NCBI GenBank assembly: GCA_964407835.1
Contig: CAYOXB010000004.1
Location: 1-60,575, forward strand
DNA from: an uncultured Bacteroidales bacterium
GTDB taxonomy: Bacteria > Bacillota_I > Bacilli_A > ML615J-28 > CAG-698
DNA: 60,575 nucleotides
Direction: 5' to 3'
The number at the start of each line of letters is the position of its first letter. Position 1 is the first letter of the stretch. The notes below the pieces were generated by a model. The model made no database searches. It was not told the DNA's origin and worked only from the letters and a program-made list of their open reading frames with translations. Position numbers and translations under genes: made by a program. Below, one piece after another: positions 17,137 through 54,549 of the stretch.

Positions 17137-17170
17137 AACATCTATAAAAACATATCTATAATTTAAAAAT

Positions 17171-18182: not shown

Positions 18183-18213
18183 AAAACACTCTAGATTGAA
18201 CTAGAGTGTTTTT
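18182..18213. terminator. Bidirectional intrinsic terminator
   Basis: AAAAACACTCTAG-attgaa-CTAGAGTGTTTTT between convergent genes. Confidence 0.8.
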
Positions 18214-18223
18214 AATAGTTATA

Positions 18224-18880
18224 TTATTTTTTGAAATAACTATGAAATAGATCAAAGATTAATTTTGTTTCTTCACTATTTGCAAGAATTTCTGGATGCC
18301 ACTGGACTCCAATAATTGGAAGACTCTGATGTACATAAGCTTCTATTGTATTATCTTCAGCATATGCAATTACATCAAGTCCTTCAGCAGGTTTTTTAAC
18401 TGCTTGATGGTGATATGAATTAACTTCAATTGTTTCTTTAAAATTAATATGTTTATTTGGTAATACTTTCACAACATGTCCATTTGGTATGTCTGTATGA
18501 TCATCTCCAATATGTTGGTGTAATGAACCACCTAAGAATACATTAATAGATTGGTGTCCTCTACATATTCCAAGAATAGGTTTTTTTGTTTTTACAGCAT
18601 GTTCTACAACTGCTTTATCAAGTAAGTCTAGTTCAGGTTTAATACCTTCTGATAATCCTTCATTTTCTTCATTAAAATAGTTTGGATCTAAATCAGTTCC
18701 CCCAGTAATTAAGAAACCATCACATAGTGGTAGGATTTCTTCAATATCAGGGTTATTTGCAAGAAGAAGAATGACATTGAGTCCTCTATCTGTTAGTTGT
18801 TTTGCATAGCGTGTATTTACAAATTGTTTTTCAACGCCTTTTTCTGTCATAATTCTTGATGTGATTCCAATTAATTTCAT
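18224..18880 (-). CDS. Gamma-glutamyl-gamma-aminobutyrate hydrolase family (peptidase C26, class I glutamine amidotransferase-like)
   Basis: DGFLITGGTD, ILGICRGHQ, VNSYHHQAV, VQWHPE (Cys-His-Glu triad intact); start at 18880 follows SD aaggaga. Confidence 0.85.
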   Translation of the reverse strand: MKLIGITSRIMTEKGVEKQFVNTRYAKQLTDRGLNVILLLANNPDIEEILPLCDGFLITGGTDLDPNYFNEENEGLSEGIKPELDLLDKAVVEHAVKTKKPILGICRGHQSINVFLGGSLHQHIGDDHTDIPNGHVVKVLPNKHINFKETIEVNSYHHQAVKKPAEGLDVIAYAEDNTIEAYVHQSLPIIGVQWHPEILANSEETKLIFDLFHSYFKK

Positions 18881-19005
18881 AATAATCTCCTTTTTCAAAC
18901 TATCTAATTTTACTATATTTTAAGAAATAATTCAACTCTATTGTTTAAATCAAAAATTATTCATAGAAAATATAATTTATGGTATAATAATACTTGAGGT
19001 AATTT

Positions 19006-20211
19006 ATGGATACATTAAAAGAATTATATAAAATTGGACATGGACCTTCTAGTTCACATACAATGGGACCACAATATGCAGCTGAAGTATTTAAGAAGAA
19101 AAACCCTAAAGCAACTAAATATGTTGTGGAACTATATGGGTCTTTAGCTCTTACTGGTAAGGGACATTTAACAGATAAAATCTTATATGACACTCTTGGT
19201 AGAGAAAAAACTGAAGTTATTTTTAAACCAGAGTTATTTTATGAGTATCATCCTAATGGGATGAAGTTGTTTGCATATGAAAATGATAAATTAGTTGATG
19301 AATATTTAGTGTTTTCTGTTGGTGGTGGAACTCTTAAGGAACTTGATGAACCAAGAGAAGTTACAAAAGAACCATATTATAAACATAAATACATGGTTGA
19401 TATTTTAAAATATTGTGAAGAAAAAAATATATCTTTATATGATTATGTTTTGGAATCAGAAGATGAAGATATATTAGATTTCGCAAAGAAGATTGTAGTT
19501 GTTATGTTTGATAGTGTAGAAAGAGGGCTAAAAAAAGAAGGCCATCTACCAGGACCTTTAAAGATTAAAAGAAGAGCAAATGAAGTTTATAAAAAATACT
19601 TGGAAAATAAAGATTTCAATAGTTTAGTTTTTTCAGCTACTCTTGCAGTTAGTGAAGAAAATGCTAGTGGTGAGATTATTGTAACAACTCCAACTTGTGG
19701 AGCAAGTGGAGTTATGCCTGGAGTTTTATATACTTATTTTAAAACTGAAAAATATTCTATTGAAGAAATAGCAAAAGCTGTTTTAGTTGGTGGGTTAGTG
19801 GGTAATTTAGTTAAACATAATGCATCAATAAGCGGTGCAGAGGTTGGTTGTCAAGGTGAGGTTGGTACAGCTTGTTCAATGACTGCTGCGGCTTTAGCTT
19901 ATTTAAAAGGTGGAAGTAATAAACACATTGAATATGCTGCTGAGATTGCCTTAGAGCATCATTTGGGTTTGACTTGTGATCCTATTTTAGGATATGTACA
20001 AATACCTTGTATTGAAAGAAATGCGCTTTCCGCAAGAAGAGCAATAGATTCTTGTAATTTTGCACTTTTAACGGATGGTGAACATTATATAACTTTAGAT
20101 GATGTAATTAAATCATTAAAAGAAACAGGGAAGGATATTCATTCTAATTATCGTGAAACATCACTTGGAGGACTTGCAAAGATAAAACTTCCAACATATT
20201 ATGAACATTAA
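19006..20211 (+). CDS. sdaA: L-serine ammonia-lyase, Fe-S dependent, single chain
   Basis: YKIGHGPSSSHTMGP, VTTPTCGASG, GCQGEVG, LTCDP, IPCIERN, YRETSLGGLA. Confidence 0.9.
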   Translation: MDTLKELYKIGHGPSSSHTMGPQYAAEVFKKKNPKATKYVVELYGSLALTGKGHLTDKILYDTLGREKTEVIFKPELFYEYHPNGMKLFAYENDKLVDEYLVFSVGGGTLKELDEPREVTKEPYYKHKYMVDILKYCEEKNISLYDYVLESEDEDILDFAKKIVVVMFDSVERGLKKEGHLPGPLKIKRRANEVYKKYLENKDFNSLVFSATLAVSEENASGEIIVTTPTCGASGVMPGVLYTYFKTEKYSIEEIAKAVLVGGLVGNLVKHNASISGAEVGCQGEVGTACSMTAAALAYLKGGSNKHIEYAAEIALEHHLGLTCDPILGYVQIPCIERNALSARRAIDSCNFALLTDGEHYITLDDVIKSLKETGKDIHSNYRETSLGGLAKIKLPTYYEH

Positions 20212-30168: not shown

Positions 30169-31086
30169 CATACCTTGATAAAGGTTATTTATTTTCATAT
30201 ATTTATCTATTTCATTCATTACTACAAGTTTTTTTAAGCTCCAAAGAGGTTCAATTAGTTCATCTTTTGGAGCGTCTCCTGTAAGCCTGTGAATGATAAT
30301 ATTAGCATTTAAGAGAGTGATTTGCTTTGAAGTTATGGAAACATACTCATCTAAAGTGAGTATTTTAAAGGGTTTAGTTAAGTAAATATTTCCTAGTGGT
30401 GTCTTATTTAAAATAAATAAAGAATGGATTTTAAGACCCTGAATATCTTGTGTATTTAAAAACATTACTGTCTCTAACATCATTTCTGGTGTTTCATTAG
30501 GTAGACCATTTATAATGTGGGTAATAACTTCAAGTTTAGCTTCTCTTAGTTTTTTTACGGCTTGTTTAAAATCAGCTAAAGTATAGCATAAATTTAAATA
30601 TTCCATAGTTTCTGAGTGGATTGTTTGCAGTCCCAGTTCAACCCAAACAGGTATTTTATTATTTAGCTCTTTTAAATATTCAATAATTTGATCATCTAAA
30701 CAATCGGGTCTTGTTCCAATTGAAAGAGCTACTATATTTGGATCTAAGTGAATAGCATAATCAAAAAGAGTTTTAAGCTTTTCTAGGGGAGCGTAAGTAT
30801 TTGTATTAGCTTGGAAGTAAATAATATATTTGCCGTTTTTCCATTTCTTTGCCATTATTTCTTTTTGGGTATTGAATTGTTTTAGTAGATCATCTTTTGG
30901 ATTACCTGCAAACTCACCACTTCCTTTTGCACTACAAAAGATACAACCACCAAAGCCTTTTGAACCATCCCTATTCGGGCATGTAAAGTTACCATTTAAG
31001 GATATTTTAAAAACTTTAGAATTATATTTAGTTTTTAAGTATTGATTTAAGCTATTATATTTATGCTGTTTTGAAAAATAATTCAT
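30154..31086 (-). CDS. TIGR01212-type (YhcC/YtqA-like) radical SAM protein
   Basis: FTCPNRDGSKGFGGCIFC, YFQANTNTY, IGTRPDC, VELGLQT, HIINGLP, IHRLTGD. Confidence 0.88.
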   Translation of the reverse strand: MNYFSKQHKYNSLNQYLKTKYNSKVFKISLNGNFTCPNRDGSKGFGGCIFCSAKGSGEFAGNPKDDLLKQFNTQKEIMAKKWKNGKYIIYFQANTNTYAPLEKLKTLFDYAIHLDPNIVALSIGTRPDCLDDQIIEYLKELNNKIPVWVELGLQTIHSETMEYLNLCYTLADFKQAVKKLREAKLEVITHIINGLPNETPEMMLETVMFLNTQDIQGLKIHSLFILNKTPLGNIYLTKPFKILTLDEYVSITSKQITLLNANIIIHRLTGDAPKDELIEPLWSLKKLVVMNEIDKYMKINNLYQGMKKEL

Positions 31087-31183
31087 TTGAAGTTCCTACA
31101 CTTGTTATTTTATTATTATATATTAGCCTAATTAAGTAGTAATATCAAGTTGTAATGTATTTAATATAAAAAAATTATAAAAA

Positions 31184-31212
31184 TTGCTATTGTTTTAAAA
31201 ATGATGTATAAT
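31184..31212 (+). promoter_or_regulatory. Sigma-70-type promoter of the ncRNA
   Basis: TTGCTA (31184-31189)-17 bp-TATAAT (31207-31212), placing +1 near 31219. Confidence 0.7.
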
Positions 31213-31218
31213 TAAATT

Positions 31219-31387
31219 GCCTGGGGAGTTCGGGTTTTTATATAATTGCGGACCCAACAAATCTGATTTAGGAAGTTGAGGCATATTTAAGAGTGAACGC
31301 TTACTTGTAAGAATCCCAATAATATGCAAAAAGAGACTACCACCCTGTGAAAACGAGGTTTCACATTGTAATATCGGCTTCCTGGGT
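31219..31387 (+). ncRNA. ssrS: Probable 6S RNA
   Basis: GC-richer ORF-free island with its own promoter and terminator. 5' CCTGGGGAGTTCG pairs with 3' CGGCTTCCTGGG; GGACC pairs with GGTTT; there is an unpaired central region; GGaAGTT/GACTaCC and GCATATT/AATATGC form the apical stem. Folded by eye, no covariance model run. Confidence 0.72.
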
Positions 31388-31407
31388 TAAATTAAAAACA
31401 AGAAATT

Positions 31408-31442
31408 AAGACATTCTAGTTATTAACTAGGATGTCTTTTTA
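31408..31442 (+). terminator. Intrinsic terminator of the ncRNA
   Basis: AGACATTCTAGT-tatta-ACTAGGATGTCT followed by a T tract. Confidence 0.8.
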
Positions 31443-31514
31443 TCTAGTGTAAAAGAATAGGTTTAAACTATTTTTATTATTTTTGGTAATATTGTCGCTT
31501 TGGGCACTTTAGAC

Positions 31515-31543
31515 TTGAAAGCGCTTCGCTAATGGTATATAAT
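31515..31543 (+). promoter_or_regulatory. Promoter of the glutamate mutase operon with an overlapping LacI/cre-like site
   Basis: TTGAAA-17 bp-TATAAT; TGAAAGCGCTTC overlaps the -35 and spacer. Confidence 0.6.
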
Positions 31544-31578
31544 AATATATGTAATTTGTAGAAAAATCGGAGGATAAT

Positions 31579-31992
31579 GTGGATACAATAGTTATTGGTG
31601 TAATCGGAGCTGATGTACACGCAGTAGGAAATAAAATAATTGATTATACTCTAACAAGAGAAGGCTTTAATGTTGTTAATGTTGGGGTATTATCTACTCA
31701 AGAAGACTTTATTAATGCTGCAATAGAAACTAACGCAAAAATGATTCTTGTTTCATCTTTATATGGCCATGGGGAGATTGATTGCCGTGGTATGAGAGAA
31801 AAATGTATTGAGGCTGGACTTGATGATATTCTTTTATATGTTGGTGGTAATATTGTTGTTGGAAAACAAGAGTTTTCTGATGTAGAAATGAGATTTAAGA
31901 AAATGGGATTTGATCGTGTTTTCCCTCCAGGAACAACGATTGATTCTGTTATTGAAATAATAAAACAGGATTTAGAAAACCTTAGTGACTAA
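31579..31992 (+). CDS. glmS: Glutamate (methylaspartate) mutase S subunit, B12-binding
   Basis: [11 protein letters not shown] (DxHxxG), [17 protein letters not shown]; GTG start after SD ggagga. Also called mamA/mutS; not the glucosamine synthase. Confidence 0.93.
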
Positions 31993-33382
31993 ATCTTTAA
32001 AGACTAATTATTTATTAGTTGATATAGGTTCAACCTATACGAAACTAACAGCAGTTAATTTAGAAGAAGAAGATATTATTGCTACTAGTCAAGCACATAC
32101 AACTATTTTGGATGATGTTCATTTAGGTTATCAAGAAGCATTGGATTTACTTTTAAAAGATTTACCAAAAGATGTAGTGTTTGAAAAGATTTTTGCTTGT
32201 TCATCTGCTGCAGGTGGCTTAAAGATGGCAGCAATAGGACTTGTTGAAGAATTAACTGTTGAAGCAGCTAAAAGAGTTTGCCTTAATTCTGGTGGGAAGG
32301 TCGATTTAATTTTTTCTCACTACCTAACAAAATCAGATATAGAAAAAATTAAAGATGGTAAAATTGATATTATTCTTTTGGCTGGTGGAACTGATGGTGG
32401 AAATAGCGAAGTAGTTATTCATAATTTAGGAATGCTTGCAAGAGCAGGAGTAAAAATTCCTATTATTTATGCTGGTAATAAATCAGCACAAGATGAAGTT
32501 TTAGAAATATTTGAAGAATATAAACTAAATGGTCATATATGTGCCAATGTAATGCCGAAGCTCAATGAACTTAATATAGATCCTGCTAAGGAAGTTATTA
32601 AGAAAATATTTTTAGAAAATATTATTGAAGCTAAAGGTATTAAAGTTTTCTCAAAGAAAATTAATGGTGATTTACTACCTACGCCACAAGTAGTATTAAA
32701 AGCTATTGAGCTTTTAAGTGTTGGTTATTTAGGTGAAGTTGGATTTGGAGATAGTGTTTTAATTGATATAGGTGGTGCAACTACTGATATTTATTCGATT
32801 TCTAAAGGACTTCCAAAAACACCAAATACAATAGTTCAAGGCTTAGAGGAACCTTTTGCGAAGAGGACAGTAGAAGGAGACCTTGGAATGCGCTATTCTG
32901 CTGGTGGAATAGTTGATAGTCTAAATAAAGAAAGCTTAGAAAAATATAAACTAGCTGGAATTGATTTAGTAAGAGCAGCGGAGTTTCGTTTAAATAATGT
33001 TGAATTTATTCCAAACTCTAGTGAAGAGAAAAAGATAGATACTGTACTTGCAAAGATAAGTGCAGATACAGCCTTTTCTAGACATGTAGGAACTACTGAG
33101 GCTATGTATACTCCGGTTGGAGTTATATATGCTCAAAGAGGTAAGGACCTAAGTGAGACAAAAACAATAATTGGTACTGGTGGAGTTATTATTAAAAATG
33201 ACGAACCAGTTGAAATATTAAAAGAGATTCAAACTAATCTAAATAAACCATTAGAACTTAGACCAAAGGATGCTAACTTTTATTTAGATAGTGATTATAT
33301 TCTTTCCGCAATGGGACTTTTAAGTTTTGAAGAACCAATGCTCGCTTTAAAAATAATGAAAAAGAGAATTAAGAGAATTTAG
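31985..33382 (+). CDS. glmL: Glutamate mutase reactivating factor (GlmL/MutL-type, actin-like ATPase)
   Basis: [43 protein letters not shown]. Confidence 0.9.
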
Positions 33383-33384
33383 AT

Positions 33385-34842
33385 ATGGAACTAAGAAATA
33401 AAAAATGGACTGAAGAACAATTTTTAAAAGAAAGAGAAAAGGTCTTAGCTACTTGGCCAACTGGCCAGTCACCACTGCTTAATTTAGATATAGCTGTTGA
33501 AAGACTTAAAAAGATTCCAGCAGAGAAAAACTTTGCTATTCAGCTCAACCTTGCAAAAGAAGATGGAAGAACACAAATTCAACCACGAGCAGGTGTTGCT
33601 GTTTTAGATGATCATATAGAATTACTCCAGCATTTACAAAATGCGGGGGCTGATTTCCTTCCTTCCACAATCGACTCCTATACGCGTCAAAACCGTTATC
33701 AAGAAGCAGAAAATGGAATAAATGAAAGTATTAAGTTTAAGAGAAGTTTACTTAATGGTTTTCCAGCTGTTAACTACGGAGTTGAAGGTTGTGGAAAAGT
33801 CCTAGATGCTGTAAGTGTACCGCTACAAGCAAGACATGGAACACCGGACTCTAGACTTTTAGCGGAAATTATTCACGCTGCTGGTTGGACTTCTAATGAA
33901 GGTGGAGCACTTAGTTATAATGTTCCCTATGCAAAAGCTGTGTCTATTGAAGATACAATTAAGTATTGGCAGTATTGTGATCGTTTAGTTGGCTATTATG
34001 AGGAAAGAGGGGTTAAAATAAACCGTGAACCTTTTGGCCCGCTAACTGGAACTTTAGTTCCTCCAGTAATTTCTAATACTGTTGCAATTATTGAAACACT
34101 ACTTGCTGCAGAGCAAGGAGTTAAAAATATAACTGTTGGTTATGGGCAGGGCGGAAACTTAATTCAAGATGTTGCTGCTGTTAATGCACTAAGAGACCAA
34201 ACAGAAGAGTACTTAGAAAAATACGGATACAAGGATATGGAAATATCAACTGTATTCCACCAATGGATGGGTGGTTTTCCTGCTGATGAAGCGAGTGCTC
34301 TAGGTTTAATATCAATGGCTTCAACTGTTGCTGCTTTAAGTAAGGCTACTAAAATGATTACAAAGACTCCATATGAGTCTATTGGTGTGCCTACAAAAGA
34401 AGCAAATGCAATGGGAATAAAAGCATCTAAATTTGTTGTAACACTTCTTCGTGATCAAAAGTATGAAGAAAGTGCTAAGTATAAAGAAGAATATAACCAA
34501 ATCAAAAAAGAGGTTAATTCTATAATGGATCATATCTTTATTTTGGGTGAAGGTGATTTGGCTGTTGGGACAGTTAAAGCTTTTGACCAAGGAATTCTAG
34601 ATGTGCCTTTTGCACCTAGTAGATATAATGCGGGTAAGGTTCTTCCTGCTAGAGATATTGATGGTTGTATAAGAATCTTAGAATTTGGAAATATTGGCTT
34701 TAGCGAAGAAATAAAAGAATTTCATCGTAAGAAAATATTAGAACGTGCAAAATCAGAAGGTAGAGAAGTTTCATTCCAATTAACTGTTGATGATGTATAT
34801 GCTGTTAGTAATGGTAAATTAATTGGAAATTCAAATAAATAA
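33385..34842 (+). CDS. glmE: Glutamate (methylaspartate) mutase E subunit
   Basis: [60 protein letters not shown]. Confidence 0.95.
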
Positions 34843-34863
34843 TTAAAGAAAGAGAATTAAAAA

Positions 34864-36111
34864 ATGAAAATTGTAGATGTTATTTTATCAAAATCCTATA
34901 CTGGATTTTACTTTGATGATCAAAAAGCGATTAAAGCTGGAGCTAGCCAAGACGGTTTAGTGTATTTAGGAAAACCAATGACTGAAGGTTTTACTCAAAT
35001 TAGAATGCCTGGTGAGGCTATTTCTATTCAACTTGTTTTAGAAGATGGGTTAGTTGCTAAAGGAGACTGTGCAGCTGTACAATATAGTGGTGCAGGTGGA
35101 AGAGATCCTTTATTTTTAGCTGATGACTTCATTCCATTTATTGAAAAGAATTTAGTTCCGCTTTTAATTGGAGAAGATGTAAAAGATTTTAGAAAGTTAG
35201 CTGAAAAATACGATAATTTAGTTGTTGATGGGAAAAAACTTCATACAGCTATTCGCTATGGTGTTACTCAAGCATTACTTAGTGCAACAAGTTTAGTTAA
35301 AAGAAAAACAATGGCTGAAGTTGTACGAGAAGAATATAATATAAAAGATGACAAGTATGAAGCAGTTGATGTATTTACCCAAAGCGGTGATGATCGTTAT
35401 TTGAATGCTGATAAAATGATTTTAAAAGAAGTAGATGTACTTCCTCATGCTTTAATTAATCATGTGGAAACAAAATTAGGTCAACAAGGTGAAATTTTAG
35501 TTGCCTATGTAGAAAAATTAAATAAAAGAGTTAGAAGCTTAAGAAGTAATCCTAACTATATGCCAATTTTCCATATCGATGTTTATGGAACTGTTGGAAT
35601 AATCTTTGATAATAATGTTAGAAAAATTGTTGATTACTTTAAAATTTTAGAAGAAGCTGCAAAACCATTTAAACTAAGAATTGAAGGTCCAGTTGATGAT
35701 GGTACAAAAGAAGGTACAATGGCTCTTTTAAGAGATATTACTGCACTTTTAGATAAAGAAGGAGTTAATGTTGAAGTTGTTGCTGATGAATGGTGTAACA
35801 ATTTAGAAGACATTAAATACTTTGCAGATAACAGAGCTGGTCATATGCTCCAAATCAAAACTCCTGACTTAGGTGGAGTTAATAATACTATTGAAGCAAT
35901 TATGTACTGTAATGAAAAGAAAATTGGTGCTTATTGCGGTGGCACTTGTAATGAAACAAATATTTCAACTGAAATATCTGTTAACCTGGCTATAGGTGCA
36001 AAAGCTAAGCAAATACTAGGTAAACCAGGTATGGGTGTTGATGAAGCGATTATGCTTGTAAGAAACGAGATGAACCGCGTCTTAGCTATAGCAAACAAAA
36101 GAGGAAAGTAA
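34864..36111 (+). CDS. mal: Methylaspartate ammonia-lyase (beta-methylaspartase)
   Basis: GFYFDDQKAI, GDCAAVQYSGAGGRDPLF, HTAIRYG, LPHALIN, HIDVYG, VADEWCN, QIKTPDLG, GGTCNET. Confidence 0.95.
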   Translation: MKIVDVILSKSYTGFYFDDQKAIKAGASQDGLVYLGKPMTEGFTQIRMPGEAISIQLVLEDGLVAKGDCAAVQYSGAGGRDPLFLADDFIPFIEKNLVPLLIGEDVKDFRKLAEKYDNLVVDGKKLHTAIRYGVTQALLSATSLVKRKTMAEVVREEYNIKDDKYEAVDVFTQSGDDRYLNADKMILKEVDVLPHALINHVETKLGQQGEILVAYVEKLNKRVRSLRSNPNYMPIFHIDVYGTVGIIFDNNVRKIVDYFKILEEAAKPFKLRIEGPVDDGTKEGTMALLRDITALLDKEGVNVEVVADEWCNNLEDIKYFADNRAGHMLQIKTPDLGGVNNTIEAIMYCNEKKIGAYCGGTCNETNISTEISVNLAIGAKAKQILGKPGMGVDEAIMLVRNEMNRVLAIANKRGK

Positions 36112-36112
36112 A

Positions 36113-36370
36113 ATGAAGATTGGCGTTTGTGGCAGCTTAGAATCAAATGATTGCTTAATTACTGTAGAAGAAAGCGATAAACTAGAAATTATAATTGAAA
36201 GTATTGTTTATGATTTCTTTGCTGAACAAATTGAAGATGTAATAAAAAACACCTTAATAGAGCAAGGAATTGCTCAAATTAAGGTTTTTTGTAATGATAA
36301 GGGTGCACTTGATTATACGATTAAATCAAGGCTAGAAGTAGCAATTAAAAGAATGAGGGAGCAAGTATGA
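36113..36370 (+). CDS. citD: Citrate-lyase-type acyl carrier protein (gamma subunit)
   Basis: CGSLESND (prosthetic-group Ser) and DKGALDYTIKSRL. Confidence 0.9.
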   Translation: MKIGVCGSLESNDCLITVEESDKLEIIIESIVYDFFAEQIEDVIKNTLIEQGIAQIKVFCNDKGALDYTIKSRLEVAIKRMREQV

Positions 36371-37209
36371 GAAGATCACTATTATTCATTCCTGCAAATA
36401 ATCCAGGAATGATGCAAAATGCAAAACTTTTCAATGCCGATAGTATTATTTTTGATCTCGAAGATGCAATTAGTATGAGTGAAAAAGATAGTGCTAGAAG
36501 TATTTTAAAAAACTATTTAAACACTTATGACTTTAACTTTGAAGTTATCGTTAGAGTTAATGATCTTGACTCAGTTTATTTCTTAAAAGATTTAAATGAA
36601 ATAGTTCTTCCTAGTCTTGATACTATAATGCTACCTAAGGCTAGAGCAAGTCACTTTAAAAAATTAGATGAAATACTAACAAAACTAGAAACTGAGAAAA
36701 AATTAAAAAAGAAAATTAAAGTTATTCCGATTGTTGAGCTTGCTATATCAGTTTTAGAAATAGAAGAAATAGCAAAAGCAAAACGAGTTGATGGTATTTT
36801 ACTTGGTGCTGAGGACCTATCTAGTGATATGGAGTTTGAAAGAACTCTAAAAGGTGATGAGATATTTTACCCAAGAACTAGACTTGCTTATGTTGCTAGA
36901 GCATATGGTATAGATGCAATTGACACTCCATTTACTAATGTTAGAGATAATGATGGTTTAGTTAAAGATGCAACATATGCAAAATCTCTTGGTTTACAGG
37001 CAAAAGCTGCAATTCATCCAAATCAAGTTAGATTTATTAATGAAGTATTTTCACCATCTAAAAAACAAATTGAATTTGCTTTAAAAGTTGAACTTGCTTC
37101 TAAAAATAATAAAGGTGCATTTAGTCTTGATGGGCAAATGATCGATAAACCGATAATTGAAAGAAATAAAAAGATTCTTGAAAAAGCAAGAAAGTTTGAT
37201 TTGCTATGA
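36367..37209 (+). CDS. citE: Citrate/citramalate-lyase-type beta subunit (acyl-CoA lyase)
   Basis: RRSLLFIPANNP, FDLEDA, VRVN, LGAEDL, AIDTP, AIHPNQ; ATGA overlap with citD. Confidence 0.9.
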   Translation: MRRSLLFIPANNPGMMQNAKLFNADSIIFDLEDAISMSEKDSARSILKNYLNTYDFNFEVIVRVNDLDSVYFLKDLNEIVLPSLDTIMLPKARASHFKKLDEILTKLETEKKLKKKIKVIPIVELAISVLEIEEIAKAKRVDGILLGAEDLSSDMEFERTLKGDEIFYPRTRLAYVARAYGIDAIDTPFTNVRDNDGLVKDATYAKSLGLQAKAAIHPNQVRFINEVFSPSKKQIEFALKVELASKNNKGAFSLDGQMIDKPIIERNKKILEKARKFDLL

Positions 37210-38699
37210 TGAAATTACCAAAAGGTTTTAAAGGATTTACAACAAGCGAAGCTTATAAGCAAATAGAATATAAAAAAGTTGCTACTATTGAAGCTAGCAA
37301 TAAAGACAATAAGGTTTTAAAAAGTATTAGTGAAGCATTTGATAAGCTAAAAATTGTAGATGGAATGACTTTGTCTTTCCACCATCACTTAAGAAATGGT
37401 GATTTTGTCTTAAACTATTGTTTAGCGGAAATAAAAAAAAGAAATTTAAAAAACATTACTTTAGCACCTAGTTCAATCTTTCCTGTACACGAAGCTTTAA
37501 GTGAACTCATAATTAATAAAAATGTTACAACGATTTATACTAACTATTTAAATGGTAGTGTTGCAAATACAATTAATGATGGTTTTCTAGAAGGTTTACT
37601 TATTATGGATACTCACGGGGGAAGAAGTGTAGCAATCGAGGCTGGAGAAATTGTAATTGATGTAGCTTTTATTGCAACTCCTACAGCTGATAAACTTGGC
37701 AATGGCCACGGCAGAAGTGGTAAAAGCGCATGTGGGTCTTTAGGATATGCTATTCCTGATATGTTATACGCGAAGAGTAAAGTAGTAGTAACTGATAATT
37801 TAGTTGATAGTGTAGAAAACCCTGAAATAAAAGATAAATATATTGATTATGTTGTAGAGATTGAAGCAATTGGAGACCAACAAAGAATAGTTAGCGGTAC
37901 TACGAAAATTACAACTGATCCAATTGGTTTAAGGATTGCAGAAGATACAGCAAAACTAATTAATGAACTTGGCTTAATAAAAAATGGGTTTTCAATGCAA
38001 ACTGGTGCAGGGGGGACGTCCCTTGCAGTTAGCGATTTTATTAAAAAAATAATGAAAGAGCAAAATGTAAAGGCTAAATTTGCAAGTGGTGGTATAACTG
38101 GCTATTTTGTAGATATGCTTGAAGAACATTTAGTTGAAGATTTATATGATGTTCAATGTTTTGATTTAGCTGCTGTTAAAAGTTTAGAAAAAAACAAAAA
38201 TCATCATGCAATTAGTGCTTTTGATTATGCTAATCCCTATCATGATCCAGTTGTAAATAAACTTGATTTAGTTATTTTGGGAGCTACTGAAATTGATTTA
38301 AACTTCAATGTCAATGTAACTACAGGATCAAATGGAATTATTATGGGTGGAAGTGGTGGTCATGCAGATACAGCACATGGTGCTGGAGTAAGTATAATTG
38401 TTAGTCCTTTAATTAAGACAAGAATTCCAATCATTAAAGATAGAGTTACTACAATAACTACACCTGGTGAAGATATTGATGTATTTGTAACTGAATATGG
38501 AATTGCAATTAATCCAAAAAGAAAAGATTTACTAAAAAAGATAAAAAATACAAAACTTAAAATAAAAACTATTGAAGAACTCTATAATGAAGCTCATGAT
38601 ATAACATCAATTCCTAAAAAACTAATAAAAACCGATAAAGTAATTGGTTTAGTTAGGTATAGGGATATGAGCATTATCGATTGTATTTATAAAAAGTAG
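37206..38699 (+). CDS. citF: Citrate/citramalate-lyase-type alpha subunit (CoA/ACP transferase)
   Basis: SFHHHLRNGD, THGGR, CGSLGY, QTGAGG, DVQCFD, GGSGGHADTA. Confidence 0.92.
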   Translation: MMKLPKGFKGFTTSEAYKQIEYKKVATIEASNKDNKVLKSISEAFDKLKIVDGMTLSFHHHLRNGDFVLNYCLAEIKKRNLKNITLAPSSIFPVHEALSELIINKNVTTIYTNYLNGSVANTINDGFLEGLLIMDTHGGRSVAIEAGEIVIDVAFIATPTADKLGNGHGRSGKSACGSLGYAIPDMLYAKSKVVVTDNLVDSVENPEIKDKYIDYVVEIEAIGDQQRIVSGTTKITTDPIGLRIAEDTAKLINELGLIKNGFSMQTGAGGTSLAVSDFIKKIMKEQNVKAKFASGGITGYFVDMLEEHLVEDLYDVQCFDLAAVKSLEKNKNHHAISAFDYANPYHDPVVNKLDLVILGATEIDLNFNVNVTTGSNGIIMGGSGGHADTAHGAGVSIIVSPLIKTRIPIIKDRVTTITTPGEDIDVFVTEYGIAINPKRKDLLKKIKNTKLKIKTIEELYNEAHDITSIPKKLIKTDKVIGLVRYRDMSIIDCIYKK

Positions 38700-38706
38700 G
38701 TAGAAT

Positions 38707-39675
38707 ATGGAATTTAAACTAGCTTTACTAGATTCTGAAAAAGAATTAATAAAAGAATTTTTAAATAAATTTTCACTTAGCTATGATCAAGATATTGATT
38801 ATAGCTTATATGTCGTTATTGACGAGAAAATTATTGGAACAATTTCTGCTAGTTTAAATATAATAAAAGCTTTTGCGGTTGATTTAGATTATCGTGGAAG
38901 TCTTGCAAGTACATTAATAAGTAGAGCAATTAATGAACTTTATAGAAGGGGTTATACGTTTTACCAAGTATATACAACACCTAATAATAAAGCTATGTTT
39001 GAAGCGATGAATTTCTATGAAATTATATCTTCAGAAAATGTAAGTTTACTAGAATCTAAAAATAGAGATATTATGGCTGAGTTAATTAGACTTAAAGATA
39101 AATATAAAGTAAATAGTAGTGATGTTGCTGCAATTGTAATGAATTGTAATCCTTTCACAAACGGTCATTTATATTTAATAACTGAAGCTAGTAAAAAACA
39201 TGAACAAGTTATTGTTTTTTTACTAGAAGAAGAAAAATCGATGTTTAGTTTTGCTTCTAGGTATGAGATGGTTTTAAAAGGTGTAGCTAGTCTAGATAAT
39301 GTTGTAGTAATACCTTCTAGTAATTATTTAATCTCAAGCCTTACTTTTCCAACTTACTTTCTAAAACAAGAAGACGAGAAAACATTTGAAGAAGCTAAAC
39401 TTGATGCTTTAATTTTTGAAAAATACTTTATTCCGATATTCAATATTAAAAAAAGATATCTTGGCAGTGAAGAAGATATCGTTACTAGTAAATATAATAA
39501 AGTTTTAAAAGAATATTTTGGTGATTTTATTGAAATAATTCCAAGAATTAAAAATAATGATAAATATATAAGTGCATCAATTGTAAGAAAGTATTTAGAA
39601 AACAAGGAATTTGAAAAGATTAAAGAAATAGTTCCTCTTACAACATATAGTTTTTTGAAGAGTAAATATGAATAA
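38707..39675 (+). CDS. citC: [Citrate lyase] ligase (acetate:SH-lyase ligase)
   Basis: N-terminal GNAT-like region; IVMNCNPFTNGHLYL, YLISSLTFPTYFLK, ISASIVR. Confidence 0.9.
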   Translation: MEFKLALLDSEKELIKEFLNKFSLSYDQDIDYSLYVVIDEKIIGTISASLNIIKAFAVDLDYRGSLASTLISRAINELYRRGYTFYQVYTTPNNKAMFEAMNFYEIISSENVSLLESKNRDIMAELIRLKDKYKVNSSDVAAIVMNCNPFTNGHLYLITEASKKHEQVIVFLLEEEKSMFSFASRYEMVLKGVASLDNVVVIPSSNYLISSLTFPTYFLKQEDEKTFEEAKLDALIFEKYFIPIFNIKKRYLGSEEDIVTSKYNKVLKEYFGDFIEIIPRIKNNDKYISASIVRKYLENKEFEKIKEIVPLTTYSFLKSKYE

Positions 39676-40924
39676 AGAAATCTTAATAGCAAGAGAACAA
39701 AGAAGTAAGCATATTCTTGAAGAATCAAGAAGTAATAAAGTTATTGTTATTAAAGCAAATATTGCTGGGGAAAATAAAAACTTATATTATAGTTCATTAA
39801 TTATTAAAACATTTCTAAAAGAAATAAAGAAGAGAATAGAATATAATGAAGTTGAACATTATTCAAGTTTAGATGGTAATTATTATTTAGTTACACTTTC
39901 TGGAAATTTAAAAGAAATTAAAAGAGTTTTAATAGACTTAGAAGACAATCATTTACTTGGAAGACTAGTTGACCTTGATTTATATTATGAAGGTAAGCAA
40001 ATTTCACGTAGAGACCTTGGAAATAGTTTTAGAAAATGTTTAATATGTAGTGATGATGCTATAATTTGTATGAAAACAAATAAACATAGTTTAGCTGAGG
40101 TCTTAAACAAAAGTGAACTCTTAGTTCATAACTATTTAAGTGAAATTATAACTACAAATTTAATTGAAGCTATTACCCTCGAAGCATCATTAGATCCTAA
40201 ATTTGGTCTTGTTACCAAGACCTCAAAAGGGTCACACTCGGATATGGACTTTGATTTACTTATGAAATCAAGAGACATAATAGTTCCTGATTTAGGTAGG
40301 ATGTTCTTTTTTGGAATAAATAATAACTTAGATGAAGCGTTCAAACTTAGCCGCAAACTTGGTATTTCTACAGAAGAAAGAATGTTTATGGTAACAAATG
40401 GTGTTAATACATATAAGGGTTTAATATTTCTACTTGGTATTGTTCTTACAACAATGGGTTATTTATTTAAAAATAAAAAACTAAGTTTATATGAAAGCAT
40501 AAAAGAACTTGGTAGGAATTTAGTAGCTGAACTAGATAGTGATTTAAATACATTTGGTGGTTATGCTTATAAAGAATATGGCTTTTTAGGTATAAGGGGC
40601 GAAGTTGCTAGTGGCCTAGTGAGCTTAAGAGATGTTACTAGAGATCTAAATAGCTTTAGTGATGAAGAATTAACTCTAGCTTTGATTAAGTTAATTGGGG
40701 CAAGTGAAGATACTGTATTACTAAGGCGCTCAGGTAGTTTGGGAAAATATGAGTTTTATAAAAACTTAGTAGTTAACATTAAAGAATATAATCTAGAAAA
40801 AATAGAAGAAGTAACTAGAATTTGTGTTGAAAACAATATTAGTTTTGGCGGAAGTGCAGATTTACTAGCAACTGCTATATTTATTAAACTAATGGAAAAG
40901 GATTTGGTTATAAAATATGGATAA
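39668..40924 (+). CDS. citXG: Fused holo-ACP synthase CitX / triphosphoribosyl-dephospho-CoA synthase CitG
   Basis: N-half: LIAREQR...LEDNHLLGRLVDLD...RKCLIC (CitX). C-half: PKFGLV...GSHSDMD, NTYKGLIF, GIRGE, SFGGSADLL (CitG). Confidence 0.88.
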   Translation: MNKEILIAREQRSKHILEESRSNKVIVIKANIAGENKNLYYSSLIIKTFLKEIKKRIEYNEVEHYSSLDGNYYLVTLSGNLKEIKRVLIDLEDNHLLGRLVDLDLYYEGKQISRRDLGNSFRKCLICSDDAIICMKTNKHSLAEVLNKSELLVHNYLSEIITTNLIEAITLEASLDPKFGLVTKTSKGSHSDMDFDLLMKSRDIIVPDLGRMFFFGINNNLDEAFKLSRKLGISTEERMFMVTNGVNTYKGLIFLLGIVLTTMGYLFKNKKLSLYESIKELGRNLVAELDSDLNTFGGYAYKEYGFLGIRGEVASGLVSLRDVTRDLNSFSDEELTLALIKLIGASEDTVLLRRSGSLGKYEFYKNLVVNIKEYNLEKIEEVTRICVENNISFGGSADLLATAIFIKLMEKDLVIKYG

Positions 40925-41693
40925 AAGACCAATTGGTGTATTTGATTCGGGAATTGGTGGAGTTAATGTTTTAAAAAGTTTAATAGAAGAGTTTCCTCAT
41001 GAAGACTTTATATATGTTGCAGATACTCTAAATGTACCTTATGGAACTAAATCAGCAAATGAAATTAAAAACTTAGTTGATAGAATTACTAAGTATTTAA
41101 TGAGTAATAATGCAAAGGCAATTGTTATTGCTTGTAATACAGCAACTACGCAAGCTGAACATTTATTTAATTTAGATAATTTAGTAGTTCTTGGTGTTAT
41201 TAAGCCAACAGCAGAAGATGCTTTAAAAAATTCAAAAAACATTTGTGTTCTAGCAACTAATGCAACAATTAAAGCAGGTGTATATCAAAATATTTTCCTT
41301 AAAGAAGGTAAAAATGTATTTCCTATTATGGGAAGTGAACTTGTCGATGCAATTGAAGCTGGCGAGATTGACAATGAATTATCCCATACATTAGTATATA
41401 ATCATTTAAAAGATTTAGTGAATGAAAAAATAGATACTATTGTACTGGGGTGTACTCATTTTGCTTTATATGAAAGAGAAGTAAAAAGTGTTTTAAAAGA
41501 TGCAAGAGTTGTTAATTCTGGCAAACCTACCAGTAAAGAATTAAGAAAAGTTTTAAGCAGAAAGAATTTACTTAATAAGAGTAAAGAAAAAGGAAGAGTT
41601 GACTTAAAGACAACTCTAGATAAAGAAAAGTTTGAAAAACAAATAGCAATATTTGATTTAAAATATAATAGTGTAGAAAAAATTAATATTTAA
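40917..41693 (+). CDS. murI: Glutamate racemase (catalytic motifs intact)
   Basis: IGVFDSGIGG, PYG, IACNTAT (Cys73), VLGCTHF; 8-bp overlap with citXG. Confidence 0.93.
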   Translation: MDKRPIGVFDSGIGGVNVLKSLIEEFPHEDFIYVADTLNVPYGTKSANEIKNLVDRITKYLMSNNAKAIVIACNTATTQAEHLFNLDNLVVLGVIKPTAEDALKNSKNICVLATNATIKAGVYQNIFLKEGKNVFPIMGSELVDAIEAGEIDNELSHTLVYNHLKDLVNEKIDTIVLGCTHFALYEREVKSVLKDARVVNSGKPTSKELRKVLSRKNLLNKSKEKGRVDLKTTLDKEKFEKQIAIFDLKYNSVEKINI

Positions 41694-41718
41694 AAAGAGC
41701 AGAAGTCTGCTCTTTTTT
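41692..41718. terminator. Bidirectional intrinsic terminator
   Basis: AAAAAGAGCAG-aagt-CTGCTCTTTTT between murI and the convergent hydratase genes. Confidence 0.85.
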
Positions 41719-42268
41719 ACTTTCTATTTGTATATTTACTTATACCTTCGCTTAATAAGTCATTTCCATGACTATCATAGGTTACAAAAGCTGTGAAATC
41801 TTCAACTTCAAGTTTATGGATTGCCTCAGCTCCAAGTTCAGGATAAGCAACAACTTCAGCTTTTTTGATTGATTTACTTATTAATGCTGCAGCACCGCCA
41901 ATAGCTGATAAATAAAGACCACCGTATTTTTTAAGTAATTCTTTAAATTCATCATCTCTTGGTCCTTTACCGATTGAAACTTTTATACCTTCTTTCATCA
42001 GGGCTTCTGCATATGGGTCCATTCGATAACTAGATGTTGGTCCAGCTGAGCCTATTGCTTGATGAGGTTTTGCGGGTGAAGGCCCTACATAGTAAATAAT
42101 AGTGTTTTGTGTTTCTATAGGTAGTTTTTCACCACTTGCTATTGTTTCAACCATTTTTTTATGGGCCGCATCTCTAGCGGTGTAAATTGTTCCTGTTATT
42201 GAAACTGTATCTCCTGCTTTTAGTTTCTTTATTTGTTCATCTGTAATTGGTGTTGTAAGTTTTATCAT
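41717..42268 (-). CDS. Class I fumarate hydratase / tartrate dehydratase family, beta subunit (candidate mesaconase)
   Basis: GTIYTARDAAH, IYYVGPSP, GPTSSYRM, IGKG, GGAAAL, EAIHKLEVEDF; ATG 42268 preferred (SD aggtga). Confidence 0.88.
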   Translation of the reverse strand: MIKLTTPITDEQIKKLKAGDTVSITGTIYTARDAAHKKMVETIASGEKLPIETQNTIIYYVGPSPAKPHQAIGSAGPTSSYRMDPYAEALMKEGIKVSIGKGPRDDEFKELLKKYGGLYLSAIGGAAALISKSIKKAEVVAYPELGAEAIHKLEVEDFTAFVTYDSHGNDLLSEGISKYTNRK

Positions 42269-42277
42269 AGTTATCAC

Positions 42278-43123
42278 CTAAATTGTAATTTCTTTATGTC
42301 TAGCAGCATGACACTGGATGTTTATTGCAACAGGAAGACTTGCAATATGGCATGGATAGGAGTTAACTTTAACTGCTAGAGCAGTTGTAGTTCCACCAAA
42401 CCCCATTGGTCCTACACCTAGATCATTTATTTCTTTTAGTAATTCTCTTTCAAGCTCGCGGTCTAACGGATTAGCTGCTTCATCATTAATTGGTCTAAAG
42501 ATAGCCTCTTTCGCAATTATAGCTGCTTTTTCTAGATTTCCGCCTATACCAATTCCTACTATTAATGGTGGACATGGTTTACCACCAGCACTAAAAATAG
42601 TATCAAGGACTAGTTTTTTAACTCCTTCTTTGCCATCTGCAGGAATTAGCATCTTCACAAGTGACATGTTTTCACTACCACCACCCTTAGGTGCAACTGA
42701 AATTCTTAGTTTATCACCTTCAGTTATTGATGTGTGAATAATAGCCGGGGTATTATCTTTTGTATTTATTCTTTCAAGCGGATGATTTACAACTGATTTA
42801 CGTAAATATCCTTCTGAGTAAGCTTCTCTAACTCCTTGATTAATTGCATCATAAATATTACCTTCGAAAATAATTTGATTACCAATTTCGATAAAAATAA
42901 CAACAATTCCAGTATCTTGACACATTGGTACGAATTCTCTTCTAGCAATTAAATCATTTTCTTCAATTTGTTTTAAGACTGTTTTACCTATTGAAGACTT
43001 TTCATCCTTAATGGCTTCTCTAATTTTTGTTAGAACATCTTCATCTAAATTATAGTTAGCATCTAATAATAGATCTTTAACTGCTTTTGTTACTTCATTT
43101 AAATTTAACTTTCGCATATTCAT
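42278..43123 (-). CDS. Class I fumarate hydratase / tartrate dehydratase family, alpha (Fe-S) subunit (candidate mesaconase)
   Basis: PMCQDTG, LRKSVV, NTKDNTP, KGGGSEN, KPCPP, GPMGFGG, CHIASLPVAINIQCHAARH. Confidence 0.9.
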   Translation of the reverse strand: MNMRKLNLNEVTKAVKDLLLDANYNLDEDVLTKIREAIKDEKSSIGKTVLKQIEENDLIARREFVPMCQDTGIVVIFIEIGNQIIFEGNIYDAINQGVREAYSEGYLRKSVVNHPLERINTKDNTPAIIHTSITEGDKLRISVAPKGGGSENMSLVKMLIPADGKEGVKKLVLDTIFSAGGKPCPPLIVGIGIGGNLEKAAIIAKEAIFRPINDEAANPLDRELERELLKEINDLGVGPMGFGGTTTALAVKVNSYPCHIASLPVAINIQCHAARHKEITI

Positions 43124-43418
43124 CTCCCAAATAAATTCTAATTACATTATATCACTTTTTGGTAGTTTATGTAATAACAAACTTCTTTATCTTCTTTTAC
43201 TACTTTTTAAGCCTAAATTTAAGTTTATAGGGCTTTTAAATTGGGATGTAAAATTAGTCATGCTTACTATTAAAAACGCTTCAAGGGCAATTTTAAGCCT
43301 TATTATTAGATTATAGAGCTAGTAGTTAAGAATAATAAACAATAAAACATTTTCTTAAAAAAATATGATAGCAGAAATAATAATCTTATGGTAAAATATA
43401 ATAAGTGAGGTAGTAATA

Positions 43419-44219
43419 ATGATTAAAAAAGCGATTGGGATTTTAGATAGTGGCTTTGGAGGTACTTTCATTTTGGAAGAACTTGCAAAGTACTATAAAA
43501 ATGAAAGATTTATTTATTTAAATGATTTAAAGCATTATCCATTTTATAATCGTCCTGAAGGTGATGCTCTTAATATTATTAAAAGTCATATTGATTTACT
43601 TCTGAAAGAAGATATTAAATTATTAATTGTTTTAAGTGATATTATTGTAGATATTGCTTTTGATTATTTACAAGAATTTAATATTCAAGTAATTAATATT
43701 GTAGATTTGCTTATTAATTATGTAAATAAAAACTATGAAAACAAAAATATTTGTCTTTTTGGGAAAACTGAAGTAATTGAAGCTAATCTATATCAAAAGA
43801 ATTTTAAGTATAATAGGCTTTATAATATTCCAAGTGAAGATTTAGAGTTATTTATCTTACAAAAGCAAACTAAAACATCACAATCTTTTAAAGCTGTTCA
43901 AGTAGCATTTAATCAAGTAAGAAAGAGATCAATTGATTGTATTGTTGCTTCTAGTCCTTATTTAATTGAGCTTAATACTGAATTAAAAGAACATTTGGAG
44001 TTTAATGAAATAACAAATTTAAAAGATATCATTATAGAAGATATTAACGAAAGAAGATATTTCCTTAATCCTAAGGGTAGGGGAAGTATTAATATTTTAA
44101 GTAATTTAGAAAAAAAAGAGTTTAGTAAACTCATTAAGTTTAAAAAACTTAAATATGATTATATAGATATTGAATATGACCAAAGGAAAAAAAGAGCAAA
44201 ACTTAATAAAGGTTTATAG
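43419..44219 (+). CDS. Glutamate racemase-like protein lacking both catalytic cysteines
   Basis: IGILDSGFGG and YP retained; ACNT replaced by LSDI and GCTH by SSPY; ORF is full length. Confidence 0.8.
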   Translation: MIKKAIGILDSGFGGTFILEELAKYYKNERFIYLNDLKHYPFYNRPEGDALNIIKSHIDLLLKEDIKLLIVLSDIIVDIAFDYLQEFNIQVINIVDLLINYVNKNYENKNICLFGKTEVIEANLYQKNFKYNRLYNIPSEDLELFILQKQTKTSQSFKAVQVAFNQVRKRSIDCIVASSPYLIELNTELKEHLEFNEITNLKDIIIEDINERRYFLNPKGRGSINILSNLEKKEFSKLIKFKKLKYDYIDIEYDQRKKRAKLNKGL

Positions 44220-52473: not shown

Positions 52474-54549
52474 TTATTCTATAACATAAATAATATTTTT
52501 TGTTACTCTGTGGAATACTTCTTCAGAGTATTTATAATTTACAACACTTAGGGCTGAGTCGTGAACTAAGAGGAATCTTCCATTTGCAGTTATTTCATAA
52601 CCTTTAATGGCGATTAAATGGCCTCCAGTTGTATAAGGACCCATATCACCTGTTACACTCCAAGAAACTGGGCCAACTGTAGCTAAGTGGTAGAGTAATT
52701 CCTCAAAAGAATATATTCTTTTTACATATGAATTGGCTCCATATCCTCCCATACCGACAGTATTGAAAATCCAGTTACCAAAGATATTTGAACCATAGTC
52801 TTTTAATTTAATTGCAACTTCACGGTGAGGATATACATCATCAAATGTATAACCTTTATGCATTAAAAGCATTGTTGCGCTAGTTGGAGAACAAATAGAT
52901 GGTCCAATATCTGGAACTATGTATTGATTTAGGGCTGGCATTGTATATTCAACTCTTTTTGGAATATTAGTTATATCTACTGGATATTCATAGTTTGGAA
53001 TAACTAGTGATGCACTAACTAAGGATAATTTAGGCGATGTTGCATTCACAGTAGTTCTTTTTAGAACTACTTTATATTGATAGGCATCAGCTGTTCTGTT
53101 ATTTGAAATGAATAAAACATCGTTTGTAATATAAGCTAAGCTATCGCTTTGGCTAAATGTTTTGTTTTGTAAGCCAAGGCCAAAACTACCATAGTCAAAA
53201 TACATACTCCACTGACCATTTACTCTAACTCTAACTAAGATATTGGCAGTTGCATCAACACTAGAAGTAGAAGCCCATGTGCCAAGGAGCCAAGTAAAGT
53301 AATTTGTTCTAATGACTGGGGATTGATATGACCCCAGTGTATAACCATTTTCAAGAACTAAACGGTCTCCTTCTAAAACTACATTTGAGAAGAATGCTGG
53401 ATTAAAATCATAGGCATAATCTACAAATAGATGTTTATTCATAAAGTCATCTAGACCTTCGTTTGTTTCCACAAGCACAAAGTAATCAACTGAGTACGTT
53501 ACACTACCACTTGTAAGTGTAATAGTTAATTTAACTTCTTGTTCGTTTTCACTTAAATAAACATTACCTGAAGGAGTAATAACTTTATCATTACTACTTG
53601 TCCAAGTTGCAGTTACAAAATTATCGAATTCAGTAGGTAAATATAAAGACATACTAATTTTTTCAGGAATAGTAAAACTATCTAGGGCAAGTTGAAATCT
53701 TTCTTCATTTGGCATTTGTAATGCTATAACATCAAATGTTTTTTCTTTAACTTTCCCTTTGTAGATAAATACGCCTGAAATTGTAACTAGTGTACTTGCT
53801 TCTGGATATCTGAACTTACCAGCTTCAGTTATAAGTGAAGTATTTGAACTTGACCAAGAAATGGCAACTCCACCTATTTTAGCTGGTAGATATAAGTCTT
53901 CAGTAGTTTCTAGTGGTAAATTAAAATTTGCAACAGTTTTATCTAGAATTTCTTGATCAGGTACACCTAAAACTGTAATAGTTTTAAAAGTTGGGAAATT
54001 ATAGTTTTTACCAGCAATTTCTAAATTTAGACTTAAGGTAACTTCTGTATTTGAAGAAGTTAAACCAACAATTCCGTTATTTGAAATAGTTGAAGGTTGG
54101 CTTGAAGTCCAAGTAAGAATTCCTGTATATGATAAATATTCAAATTTTGTTGGAAGAAGGATATTTTCACTTGTAGAGGACGGGATATTAATTTCTTCTA
54201 AAAGAAGGCTTTTAACTTCATCTTCCTTAAGTGCATGTAGTACAAAATGAGCGACTTCAGTTGTTTTTTGGTCTTTGTAAGTAGCGCTTATAGTTGCAGA
54301 AACATTGAGTTCCAAAAAAACTTTGGATACTTTTCCTTGATTTGATAAATATTCTTGGTCATTACTTACAAAGTCAATAACGTAGTCTTTTCTTTTATAG
54401 TTAAAAGCACTTGGAATATCTAAATCATTATCTAGTTCATAGGGAAGAGTAGCAATAAATTCGCCTAGTACTTCATTTATATTTACATTATTACAAGCTA
54501 TTAGGAAAAATCCTAATAAAGCTGTAATTATAAATTTTAATTTTTTCAT
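52474..54549 (-). CDS. Lipoprotein with tandem Ig-like repeats and C-terminal peptidase C39-like domain
   Basis: Lipobox LIAC; repeated LP......WTSS....I...G.V units; SICSPTS (Cys), GGHLIAIKG (His), VHDS (Asp). Confidence 0.75.
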   Translation of the reverse strand: MKKLKFIITALLGFFLIACNNVNINEVLGEFIATLPYELDNDLDIPSAFNYKRKDYVIDFVSNDQEYLSNQGKVSKVFLELNVSATISATYKDQKTTEVAHFVLHALKEDEVKSLLLEEINIPSSTSENILLPTKFEYLSYTGILTWTSSQPSTISNNGIVGLTSSNTEVTLSLNLEIAGKNYNFPTFKTITVLGVPDQEILDKTVANFNLPLETTEDLYLPAKIGGVAISWSSSNTSLITEAGKFRYPEASTLVTISGVFIYKGKVKEKTFDVIALQMPNEERFQLALDSFTIPEKISMSLYLPTEFDNFVTATWTSSNDKVITPSGNVYLSENEQEVKLTITLTSGSVTYSVDYFVLVETNEGLDDFMNKHLFVDYAYDFNPAFFSNVVLEGDRLVLENGYTLGSYQSPVIRTNYFTWLLGTWASTSSVDATANILVRVRVNGQWSMYFDYGSFGLGLQNKTFSQSDSLAYITNDVLFISNNRTADAYQYKVVLKRTTVNATSPKLSLVSASLVIPNYEYPVDITNIPKRVEYTMPALNQYIVPDIGPSICSPTSATMLLMHKGYTFDDVYPHREVAIKLKDYGSNIFGNWIFNTVGMGGYGANSYVKRIYSFEELLYHLATVGPVSWSVTGDMGPYTTGGHLIAIKGYEITANGRFLLVHDSALSVVNYKYSEEVFHRVTKNIIYVIE

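Follow-up and report, generated by a model that had tools for sequence, protein, structure and literature searches.

Conserved translational coupling of a glutamate racemase gene to the glutamate-fermentation operon of an Acholeplasma-like lineage

The operon and its terminal racemase gene

The 60,575-nucleotide stretch of contig CAYOXB010000004.1 (assembly GCA_964407835.1, an uncultured bacterium) analyzed here, hereafter called the window, carries a glutamate-fermentation operon that ends in murI, a gene for glutamate racemase. Scans with NCBIfam and Pfam models assign ten open reading frames (ORFs) on the same strand, at positions 31579-41693, to the order glmSLE-mal-citDEFC-XG followed by murI. 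The citXG gene (39668-40924, plus strand), a citX-citG fusion for making and attaching the prosthetic group of the lyase, has its stop codon inside murI (40917-41693, plus strand): the two genes share 8 nucleotides (nt), ATGGATAA, and the ATG of murI lies within the final codons of citXG. As gene ten, murI occupies the final position in this methylaspartate-pathway operon, and a hairpin begins 0-2 nt from its end. Both structural claims of the original prediction, an intact murI overlapping citXG by 8 bp and its place as the last gene before a terminator, agree with the ORF coordinates, with the sequence, and with a hairpin at 41692-41717 that has a T-run and directly follows the stop codon. 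This terminator (11 pairs, 4 of them GC) is common to the operon and to the convergent hydratase genes.

The best sigma-70-like site found by a promoter scan of positions 31050-43500 is TTGAAA-17-TATAAT at 31515-31543 (plus strand, 11/12 matches), 36 nt 5' of glmS; it is presumed to be the single promoter for all ten genes. The same scan revealed no comparable promoter before murI. The best candidate for an internal murI promoter, a 9/12 match at 40794-40821, was rejected as being at the level of chance, with 56 such sites against 61.7 expected in this AT-rich DNA.

The genes upstream of citXG are all on the plus strand, and glmS, glmL, glmE, and mal each exceed the NCBIfam equivalog cut-off: (i) glmS (31579-31992) encodes the B12-binding subunit S of glutamate (methylaspartate) mutase (NF002612, 220 bits against a cut-off of 110), (ii) glmL (31985-33382) the mutase accessory protein (NF040745, 577.8 against 475), (iii) glmE (33385-34842) the catalytic subunit E, whose substrate is (S)-glutamate (TIGR01503, 748 against 390), and (iv) mal (34864-36111) methylaspartate ammonia-lyase (TIGR01502, 575 against 286). 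They are followed at 36113-39675 by citD-, citE-, citF-, and citC-like genes for an acyl carrier protein (ACP)-dependent lyase and its acetylating ligase; CitD and CitF score above their cut-offs (75.6 against 63.5 and 554 against 501, respectively), and CitE and CitC below theirs (243 against 443 and 236 against 262). From their gene context, the products of the citDEF-like genes are probably an (S)-citramalate lyase. The 243 bits of the CitE-like subunit (36367-37209) against the citrate-lyase beta cut-off of 443, together with its match of 181.6 to the itaconate-degradation protein RipC, are compatible with citramalate rather than citrate as the substrate.

The murI product, a protein of 258 amino acids (aa), scores 187.9 bits with the glutamate racemase family TIGR00067 (cut-off 146.65) and 72.1 bits with PF01177 (cut-off 31); with the narrower sub-models of PRK00865, it stays below the cut-offs (188 against 328). 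It contains the motifs FDSGIGG, PYG, ACNTA, and GCTHF with the pair of catalytic cysteines (C73 and C179). Across 119 homologues, the catalytic and substrate-binding residues D10, S11, P41-Y42-G43, C73-N74-T75, E147, and C179-T180-H181 are invariant, and the catalytic residues align with those of the solved structures 2gzm and 1b73. A phmmer search against solved structures matched only glutamate racemases (for instance 2gzm, 142.7 bits), and the AlphaFold model, with a pLDDT of 96.2, has glutamate racemase chains as its first 48 PDB matches (TM-scores 0.79-0.94, about 0.9). An identity as aspartate or other racemase was considered and rejected, as the protein reaches no more than 58 and 55 bits with the respective models, far below its TIGR00067 score, and the 48 top folds are all glutamate racemases. 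The family has the motif GCTHF(G/A)L where GCTHYP is usual. The product is thus predicted, by its sequence and its modeled fold, to be an ordinary, intact, cofactor-independent, and active glutamate racemase. The description of an active racemase in the original prediction is sustained as regards intactness, catalytic residues, fold, and family cut-off, and activity itself is a prediction from sequence. A racemase paralogue encoded nearby (43419-44219, plus strand; 23% identity to MurI) has lost both catalytic cysteines, with VLSD and ASSP at the ACNT and GCTH sites; therefore, it is expected to have no racemase activity and could not replace MurI.

Sequences of the window stretch were found in bioreactor, wastewater, digester, and manure metagenomes. 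Metatranscriptomes of digesters and wastewater contain contigs that cover the operon, and two of them (40751-41010 and 40841-41022) cross the citXG/murI junction with 0-1 mismatch; this evidence consists of assembled contigs at low depth, with possible carry-over of DNA.

Conservation of the citXG-murI junction and the loci of relatives

The stop of citXG and the start of murI abut or overlap (by 0, 8, 11, 14, or 32 nt) in 12 of 12 related loci, and the respective MurI proteins are 41-59% identical to that of the window. Because the overlap or zero gap has been kept in all 12 loci despite this divergence, the coupling goes beyond chance. The homologues with 59, 52, 51, 49, and 49% identity each terminate a glmSLE-mal-citDEFC-XG operon. 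A MurI search of genome contigs returned only an unrelated locus from Bacteroidota (32% identity), and a plasmid search with the whole cluster gave no match.

A survey of murI linkage to glm operons, which the original prediction had called for, was done by scanning metagenomes with a GlmE alignment. It yielded 80 glm loci, of which 42 are informative, that is, extend at least 800 bp past citXG. In 7 of these 42 loci, the distance between the citXG match and murI is -1 to +17 nt; in the other 35, which come from other lineages, no MurI-like sequence was detected anywhere in the locus. In the GlmE tree, the operons with murI group together in one cluster (SH-aLRT 94); a single change accounts for their distribution, and 0 of 500 label shuffles gave a number as low. 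Taken together, these sequence comparisons indicate that the citXG-murI linkage is old, maintained, and lineage-specific, and is no general trait of glm operons. One metagenome contig, LFRM01233386.1 (locus L055), has a G+C content of 50% and the same order of glm...citXG, murI, hydratase, and dead paralogue, with identities to the window of 44% for MurI and 41% for the dead paralogue; it represents either a different lineage of higher GC content or a block that was transferred as a whole.

The expanded clusters L018-L021 (MurI identity 40-45%) are super-clusters of about 20 kb, that of L018 spanning positions 1-19457; assembly GCA_965316125.1 carries a cluster of this expanded type. Their citXG is followed by genes for a lipoprotein gamma-glutamyltransferase (GGT), a DctM-like transporter, two zinc hydrolases of the AstE/AspA type, DUF6305 lipoproteins, and an aBig_2 surface lipoprotein of about 1250 aa, then by murI and the hydratase pair, and finally by pgsB, pgsC, a gene for a TIGR04332 protein, a two-component system, and a PduO-type adenosyltransferase. 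The lipoprotein GGT scores 442 bits with TIGR00066 (cut-off 358), and the L018 proteins PgsB, PgsC, and TIGR04332 score 310.7 (cut-off 222.7), 117.6 (96.45), and 321.8 (100), respectively. In L021, murI shares 8 nt with the last gene of the pgs system. By its gene content, this locus looks like a combined site of polyglutamate synthesis, degradation, and fermentation, in which the GGT, zinc hydrolases, and transporter resemble an outside-to-inside route for gamma-glutamyl polymers. These clusters would tie the racemase family to gamma-glutamyl polymers on two sides, breakdown by a surface GGT and synthesis. The suggestion that poly-gamma-glutamate is a source of D-glutamate is accordingly both helped and complicated by the relatives' clusters, which add surface lipoproteins for gamma-glutamyl cleavage and have pgsB and pgsC as neighbors of murI. 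PgsB and PgsC exceed their cut-offs only in L018-L021 and are absent from the window; GGT, pgs, and the other extra genes were found neither in the window nor in the 10-kb flanks of its closer relatives. Another variant of the expanded architecture was observed in the metagenome loci L030 and L059, where glmS, glmE, and mal are directly followed by GGT, DctM, and AstE-like genes; glmL and cit genes were not detected in between by tblastn at a coverage of at least 50%.

A further clade, represented by P0033 and P0043 (MurI identity 47-48%), has an intact murI alone, directly behind a minus-strand IndA gene and with its own TTGAGG/TATAAT-like promoter site; examples are L022 (8950-10792) and the P0033 locus in GCA_016648615.1, and assembly GCA_965354375.1 likewise has a stand-alone murI. 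The upstream flank of ParA, HIGH_NTase1, endonuclease, and IndA genes is common to the stand-alone murI and to glmS of the operon loci L026, L033, L015, L055, and L081, and in L022 AlaS, RuvX, and DUF1292 genes are also present farther upstream of this shared flank. On the MurI tree, the stand-alone clade is nested among the operon-type sequences. The pattern suggests that nine genes between IndA and murI were lost, insertion being less likely.

Downstream of the operon, the minus-strand gene pair at 41717-43123 encodes a two-subunit class I fumarase-type Fe-S hydro-lyase (NF005310, 250.9 against a cut-off of 238; NF004885, 406.5 against 276). Since the pair adjoins the operon in relatives too, it is a candidate mesaconase for the missing step of the pathway. 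Two other window genes, both on the minus strand, may be mentioned here. The protein encoded at 18224-18898, 13 kb upstream of the operon, belongs to the Peptidase_C26 family of class I amidotransferase-type gamma-glutamyl hydrolases (163.7 bits) and could release glutamate from gamma-glutamyl compounds. The gene at 52474-54549 encodes a 691-aa lipoprotein with aBig_2 and Peptidase_C39_2 domains. Its aBig_2 part bears a weak resemblance (34% over 71 aa) to the surface lipoprotein of 1258 aa encoded in the GGT clusters of relatives. In close relatives L007 (13273-13527, minus strand) and L015 (13307-13561, minus strand), a Coat_F gene of the spore coat protein F family lies beside the cluster; it is absent from this place in the window and may have been left over from sporulation in a lineage supposed to be wall-less.

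Physiological role of the racemase

The affinity of the host bears on the role of MurI. The window glutamyl-tRNA synthetase GltX is 78% identical to a protein from a metagenome-assembled genome (MAG) labeled 'Bacilli bacterium' and 71-72% identical to proteins from 'Acholeplasmataceae bacterium' MAGs. All five of the large or secreted proteins in the window that carry a signal are lipoproteins with a lipobox and without LPXTG, as in Mollicutes. A Mollicutes-type envelope fits these data, and the Acholeplasmataceae-like affinity suggests that the host may be wall-less. In the literature, Acholeplasmatales count as deficient in peptidoglycan; within the order, both thin-walled and wall-less species are predicted (PMC10868615). 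As originally noted, there are no cell-wall genes nearby: Pfam and/or NCBIfam scans identified no peptidoglycan synthesis gene among the 45 ORFs of at least 100 aa, and murA-G, mraY, ftsW/rodA, and genes for penicillin-binding proteins are lacking throughout the 60-kb window.

The best explanation of the locus, and on balance a probable one, is that murI serves catabolism or salvage of D-glutamate through methylaspartate fermentation. The racemase would be produced only when the methylaspartate-pathway enzymes are, and this pathway would lead via glutamate mutase, methylaspartase, mesaconase, and citramalate lyase to pyruvate and acetate. D-glutamate would be imported from decaying bacterial biomass, from peptidoglycan stem peptides and poly-gamma-glutamate, and MurI would equilibrate the glutamate pool, so that D-glutamate could be fermented or otherwise used as L-glutamate. 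In 2011 work by Ramezani and colleagues, which PMC8473912 cites, Fusobacterium varium reportedly racemized D-glutamate before fermenting it through the methylaspartate pathway. Glutamate mutase is specific for (S)-glutamate (PMC8473912); as it takes only the L-form, the role for which the racemase is selected in the operon would therefore be equilibration of the pool. The net flux from D to L, the source of D-glutamate, and the missing cell wall are parts of this explanation that we infer. The ecology is in keeping with this explanation: free-living Acholeplasma were the main assimilators of 13C-labeled dead bacterial cells in manure slurry (PMC4628116).

A more specific scenario, which we offer tentatively, is that Acholeplasma-like feeders on necromass kept murI after the loss of peptidoglycan and repurposed it, so that the former wall enzyme now stands at the entrance to a D/L-glutamate economy. 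Lipoproteins on the cell surface, the GGT and the zinc hydrolases, would attack gamma-glutamyl polymers and the wall peptides of other bacteria; the D-glutamate would be converted to L-glutamate by MurI and then fermented by the co-translated methylaspartate pathway.

Several points weigh against a catabolic role. The reaction of the racemase is reversible, and thus the direction of flux is unreadable from sequence. The operon of the window includes neither a D-glutamate transporter nor a gamma-D-glutamyl peptidase. The location of murI beside pgsB and pgsC in relatives is what would be expected for the classical anabolic use of D-glutamate. The mur genes are kept in 40-60% of Anaeroplasmataceae genomes (PMC10868615), and mraY and murG occur in 75% of 'bioreactor group' Tenericutes (PMC7301438). 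Finally, murI is intact in the clade without glm genes and is therefore selected also for something beyond feeding an adjacent operon; it appears to have an operon-independent role in general D-glutamate salvage, polyglutamate synthesis, or synthesis of a thin wall.

The strongest competing explanation, which we regard as unlikely, is a housekeeping supply of D-glutamate from L-glutamate, either for a thin peptidoglycan wall or for a poly-gamma-D/L-glutamate capsule whose pgsBC-type genes would lie elsewhere in the genome; the place of murI in the operon would then be a historical accident or a tap on a glutamate-rich state. It would explain the stand-alone murI, which sits at the same chromosomal site across its clade, and the adjoining pgsB, pgsC, and TIGR04332 genes with the 8-nt overlap in L021. 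The mur genes reported in some Acholeplasmatales and bioreactor Tenericutes (PMC10868615, PMC7301438) and the hint of spore remnants given by Coat_F point in the same direction. However, murI of the window is promoterless, and in every locus of its clade it is translationally coupled to the catabolic operon; we infer that a constantly needed wall gene would be ill served as the last, promoterless gene of an inducible catabolic operon. In addition, the 60-kb window contains no pgs, ggt, or wall gene, tblastn for pgsB/pgsC and GGT having given no candidate, and both the LPXTG-free, Mollicutes-like set of signal-bearing lipoproteins and the apparent affinity to Acholeplasmataceae among the nearest named relatives speak against this explanation.

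A two-way economy of poly-gamma-glutamate, in which the polymer is made as a capsule or store and degraded by the surface GGT, the glutamate is fermented, MurI joins the D and L pools, and the genome of the window keeps the fermentation end only, seems improbable. It is suggested by L018-L021, which unite the glm/cit genes, GGT, AstE-like lipoproteins, transporter, murI, hydratase, pgsB/pgsC/TIGR04332, two-component system, and PduO-type adenosyltransferase, but all of the additional genes are absent from the window and from the 10-kb flanks of closer relatives. It is most improbable that MurI acts on another substrate of the pathway, such as an epimer of 3-methylaspartate, or moonlights, for example as the gyrase inhibitor documented for MurI of other bacteria (PMC1635304): the family motif GCTHF(G/A)L in place of GCTHYP could be read in this way, whereas the residues for glutamate binding and catalysis are invariant, the score exceeds the TIGR00067 equivalog cut-off, the fold matches complexes with D-glutamate, and no intermediate of the pathway needs racemization.

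For the role in D-glutamate catabolism, the original prediction thus stands in part. The membership of murI in a catabolic operon is conserved, translationally coupled, clade-specific, and represented on RNA contigs, and the surface lipoproteins of relatives add to the catabolic interpretation. The pgs neighbors and the stand-alone clade, which the original prediction did not cover, indicate that the racemase does not serve this operon exclusively.

D-glutamate forms a large pool in dead bacterial biomass, namely wall peptides and polyglutamate slime, and few anaerobic routes for its use are known at the gene level. If the tentative scenario above is true, the window would provide the first example of a glutamate racemase dedicated to catabolism and built into a fermentation operon, and a case of a cell-wall gene outliving the loss of the wall by a switch of function. 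Such an operon-linked racemase would mark recyclers of the D-glutamate pool in digesters and wastewater, and would explain why a 'cell-wall' gene is kept by reduced, possibly wall-less bacteria. It would also caution those who annotate genomes or predict phenotypes against taking murI alone as evidence for peptidoglycan synthesis.

Comparison with known systems

In our literature searches, we found no report of a link between murI and glm operons, or between Acholeplasma and the methylaspartate pathway. The conserved, translationally coupled murI in a glutamate-fermentation operon of an Acholeplasma-like lineage, and the extension of this operon to GGT/pgs super-clusters, thus appear to be undescribed in the searchable literature. 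The MurI enzyme itself is ordinary and already known, and the physiology has one experimental precedent.

Compared with MurI/RacE of Firmicutes (RacE2 of Bacillus anthracis, 2gzm, and RacE of Bacillus subtilis, 1zuw), the window MurI has in common the fold, the two-cysteine mechanism, and the substrate-binding residues; it is about 31% identical to them, has GCTHF instead of GCTHYP, and is encoded by the terminal, overlapped gene of a fermentation operon rather than by a housekeeping gene. The clusters of glmS-glmL-glmE-mal, mesaconase, and citramalate lyase genes in Clostridium tetanomorphum and Clostridium tetani contain glutamate mutase, methylaspartase, and a citDEF-like set in the same order as in the window (PMC8473912), whereas the unit of the window adds citC, the citXG fusion, and murI, and its host is Acholeplasma-like. 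The racE, pgsBCA, and ggt genes of B. subtilis correspond to the combination of racemase, PgsB, PgsC, and GGT in the relatives' clusters. In Bacillus, however, these genes are scattered and unlinked to glutamate fermentation; in the relatives' clusters a TIGR04332 protein replaces PgsA, and the window has none of the extra genes. A physiological parallel is F. varium, in which D-glutamate is reportedly racemized and then fermented via glutamate mutase and methylaspartase, as we propose for the window; F. varium is walled, and no genetic coupling of murI and glm genes has been described for it, whereas the racemase gene of the window sits inside the operon.

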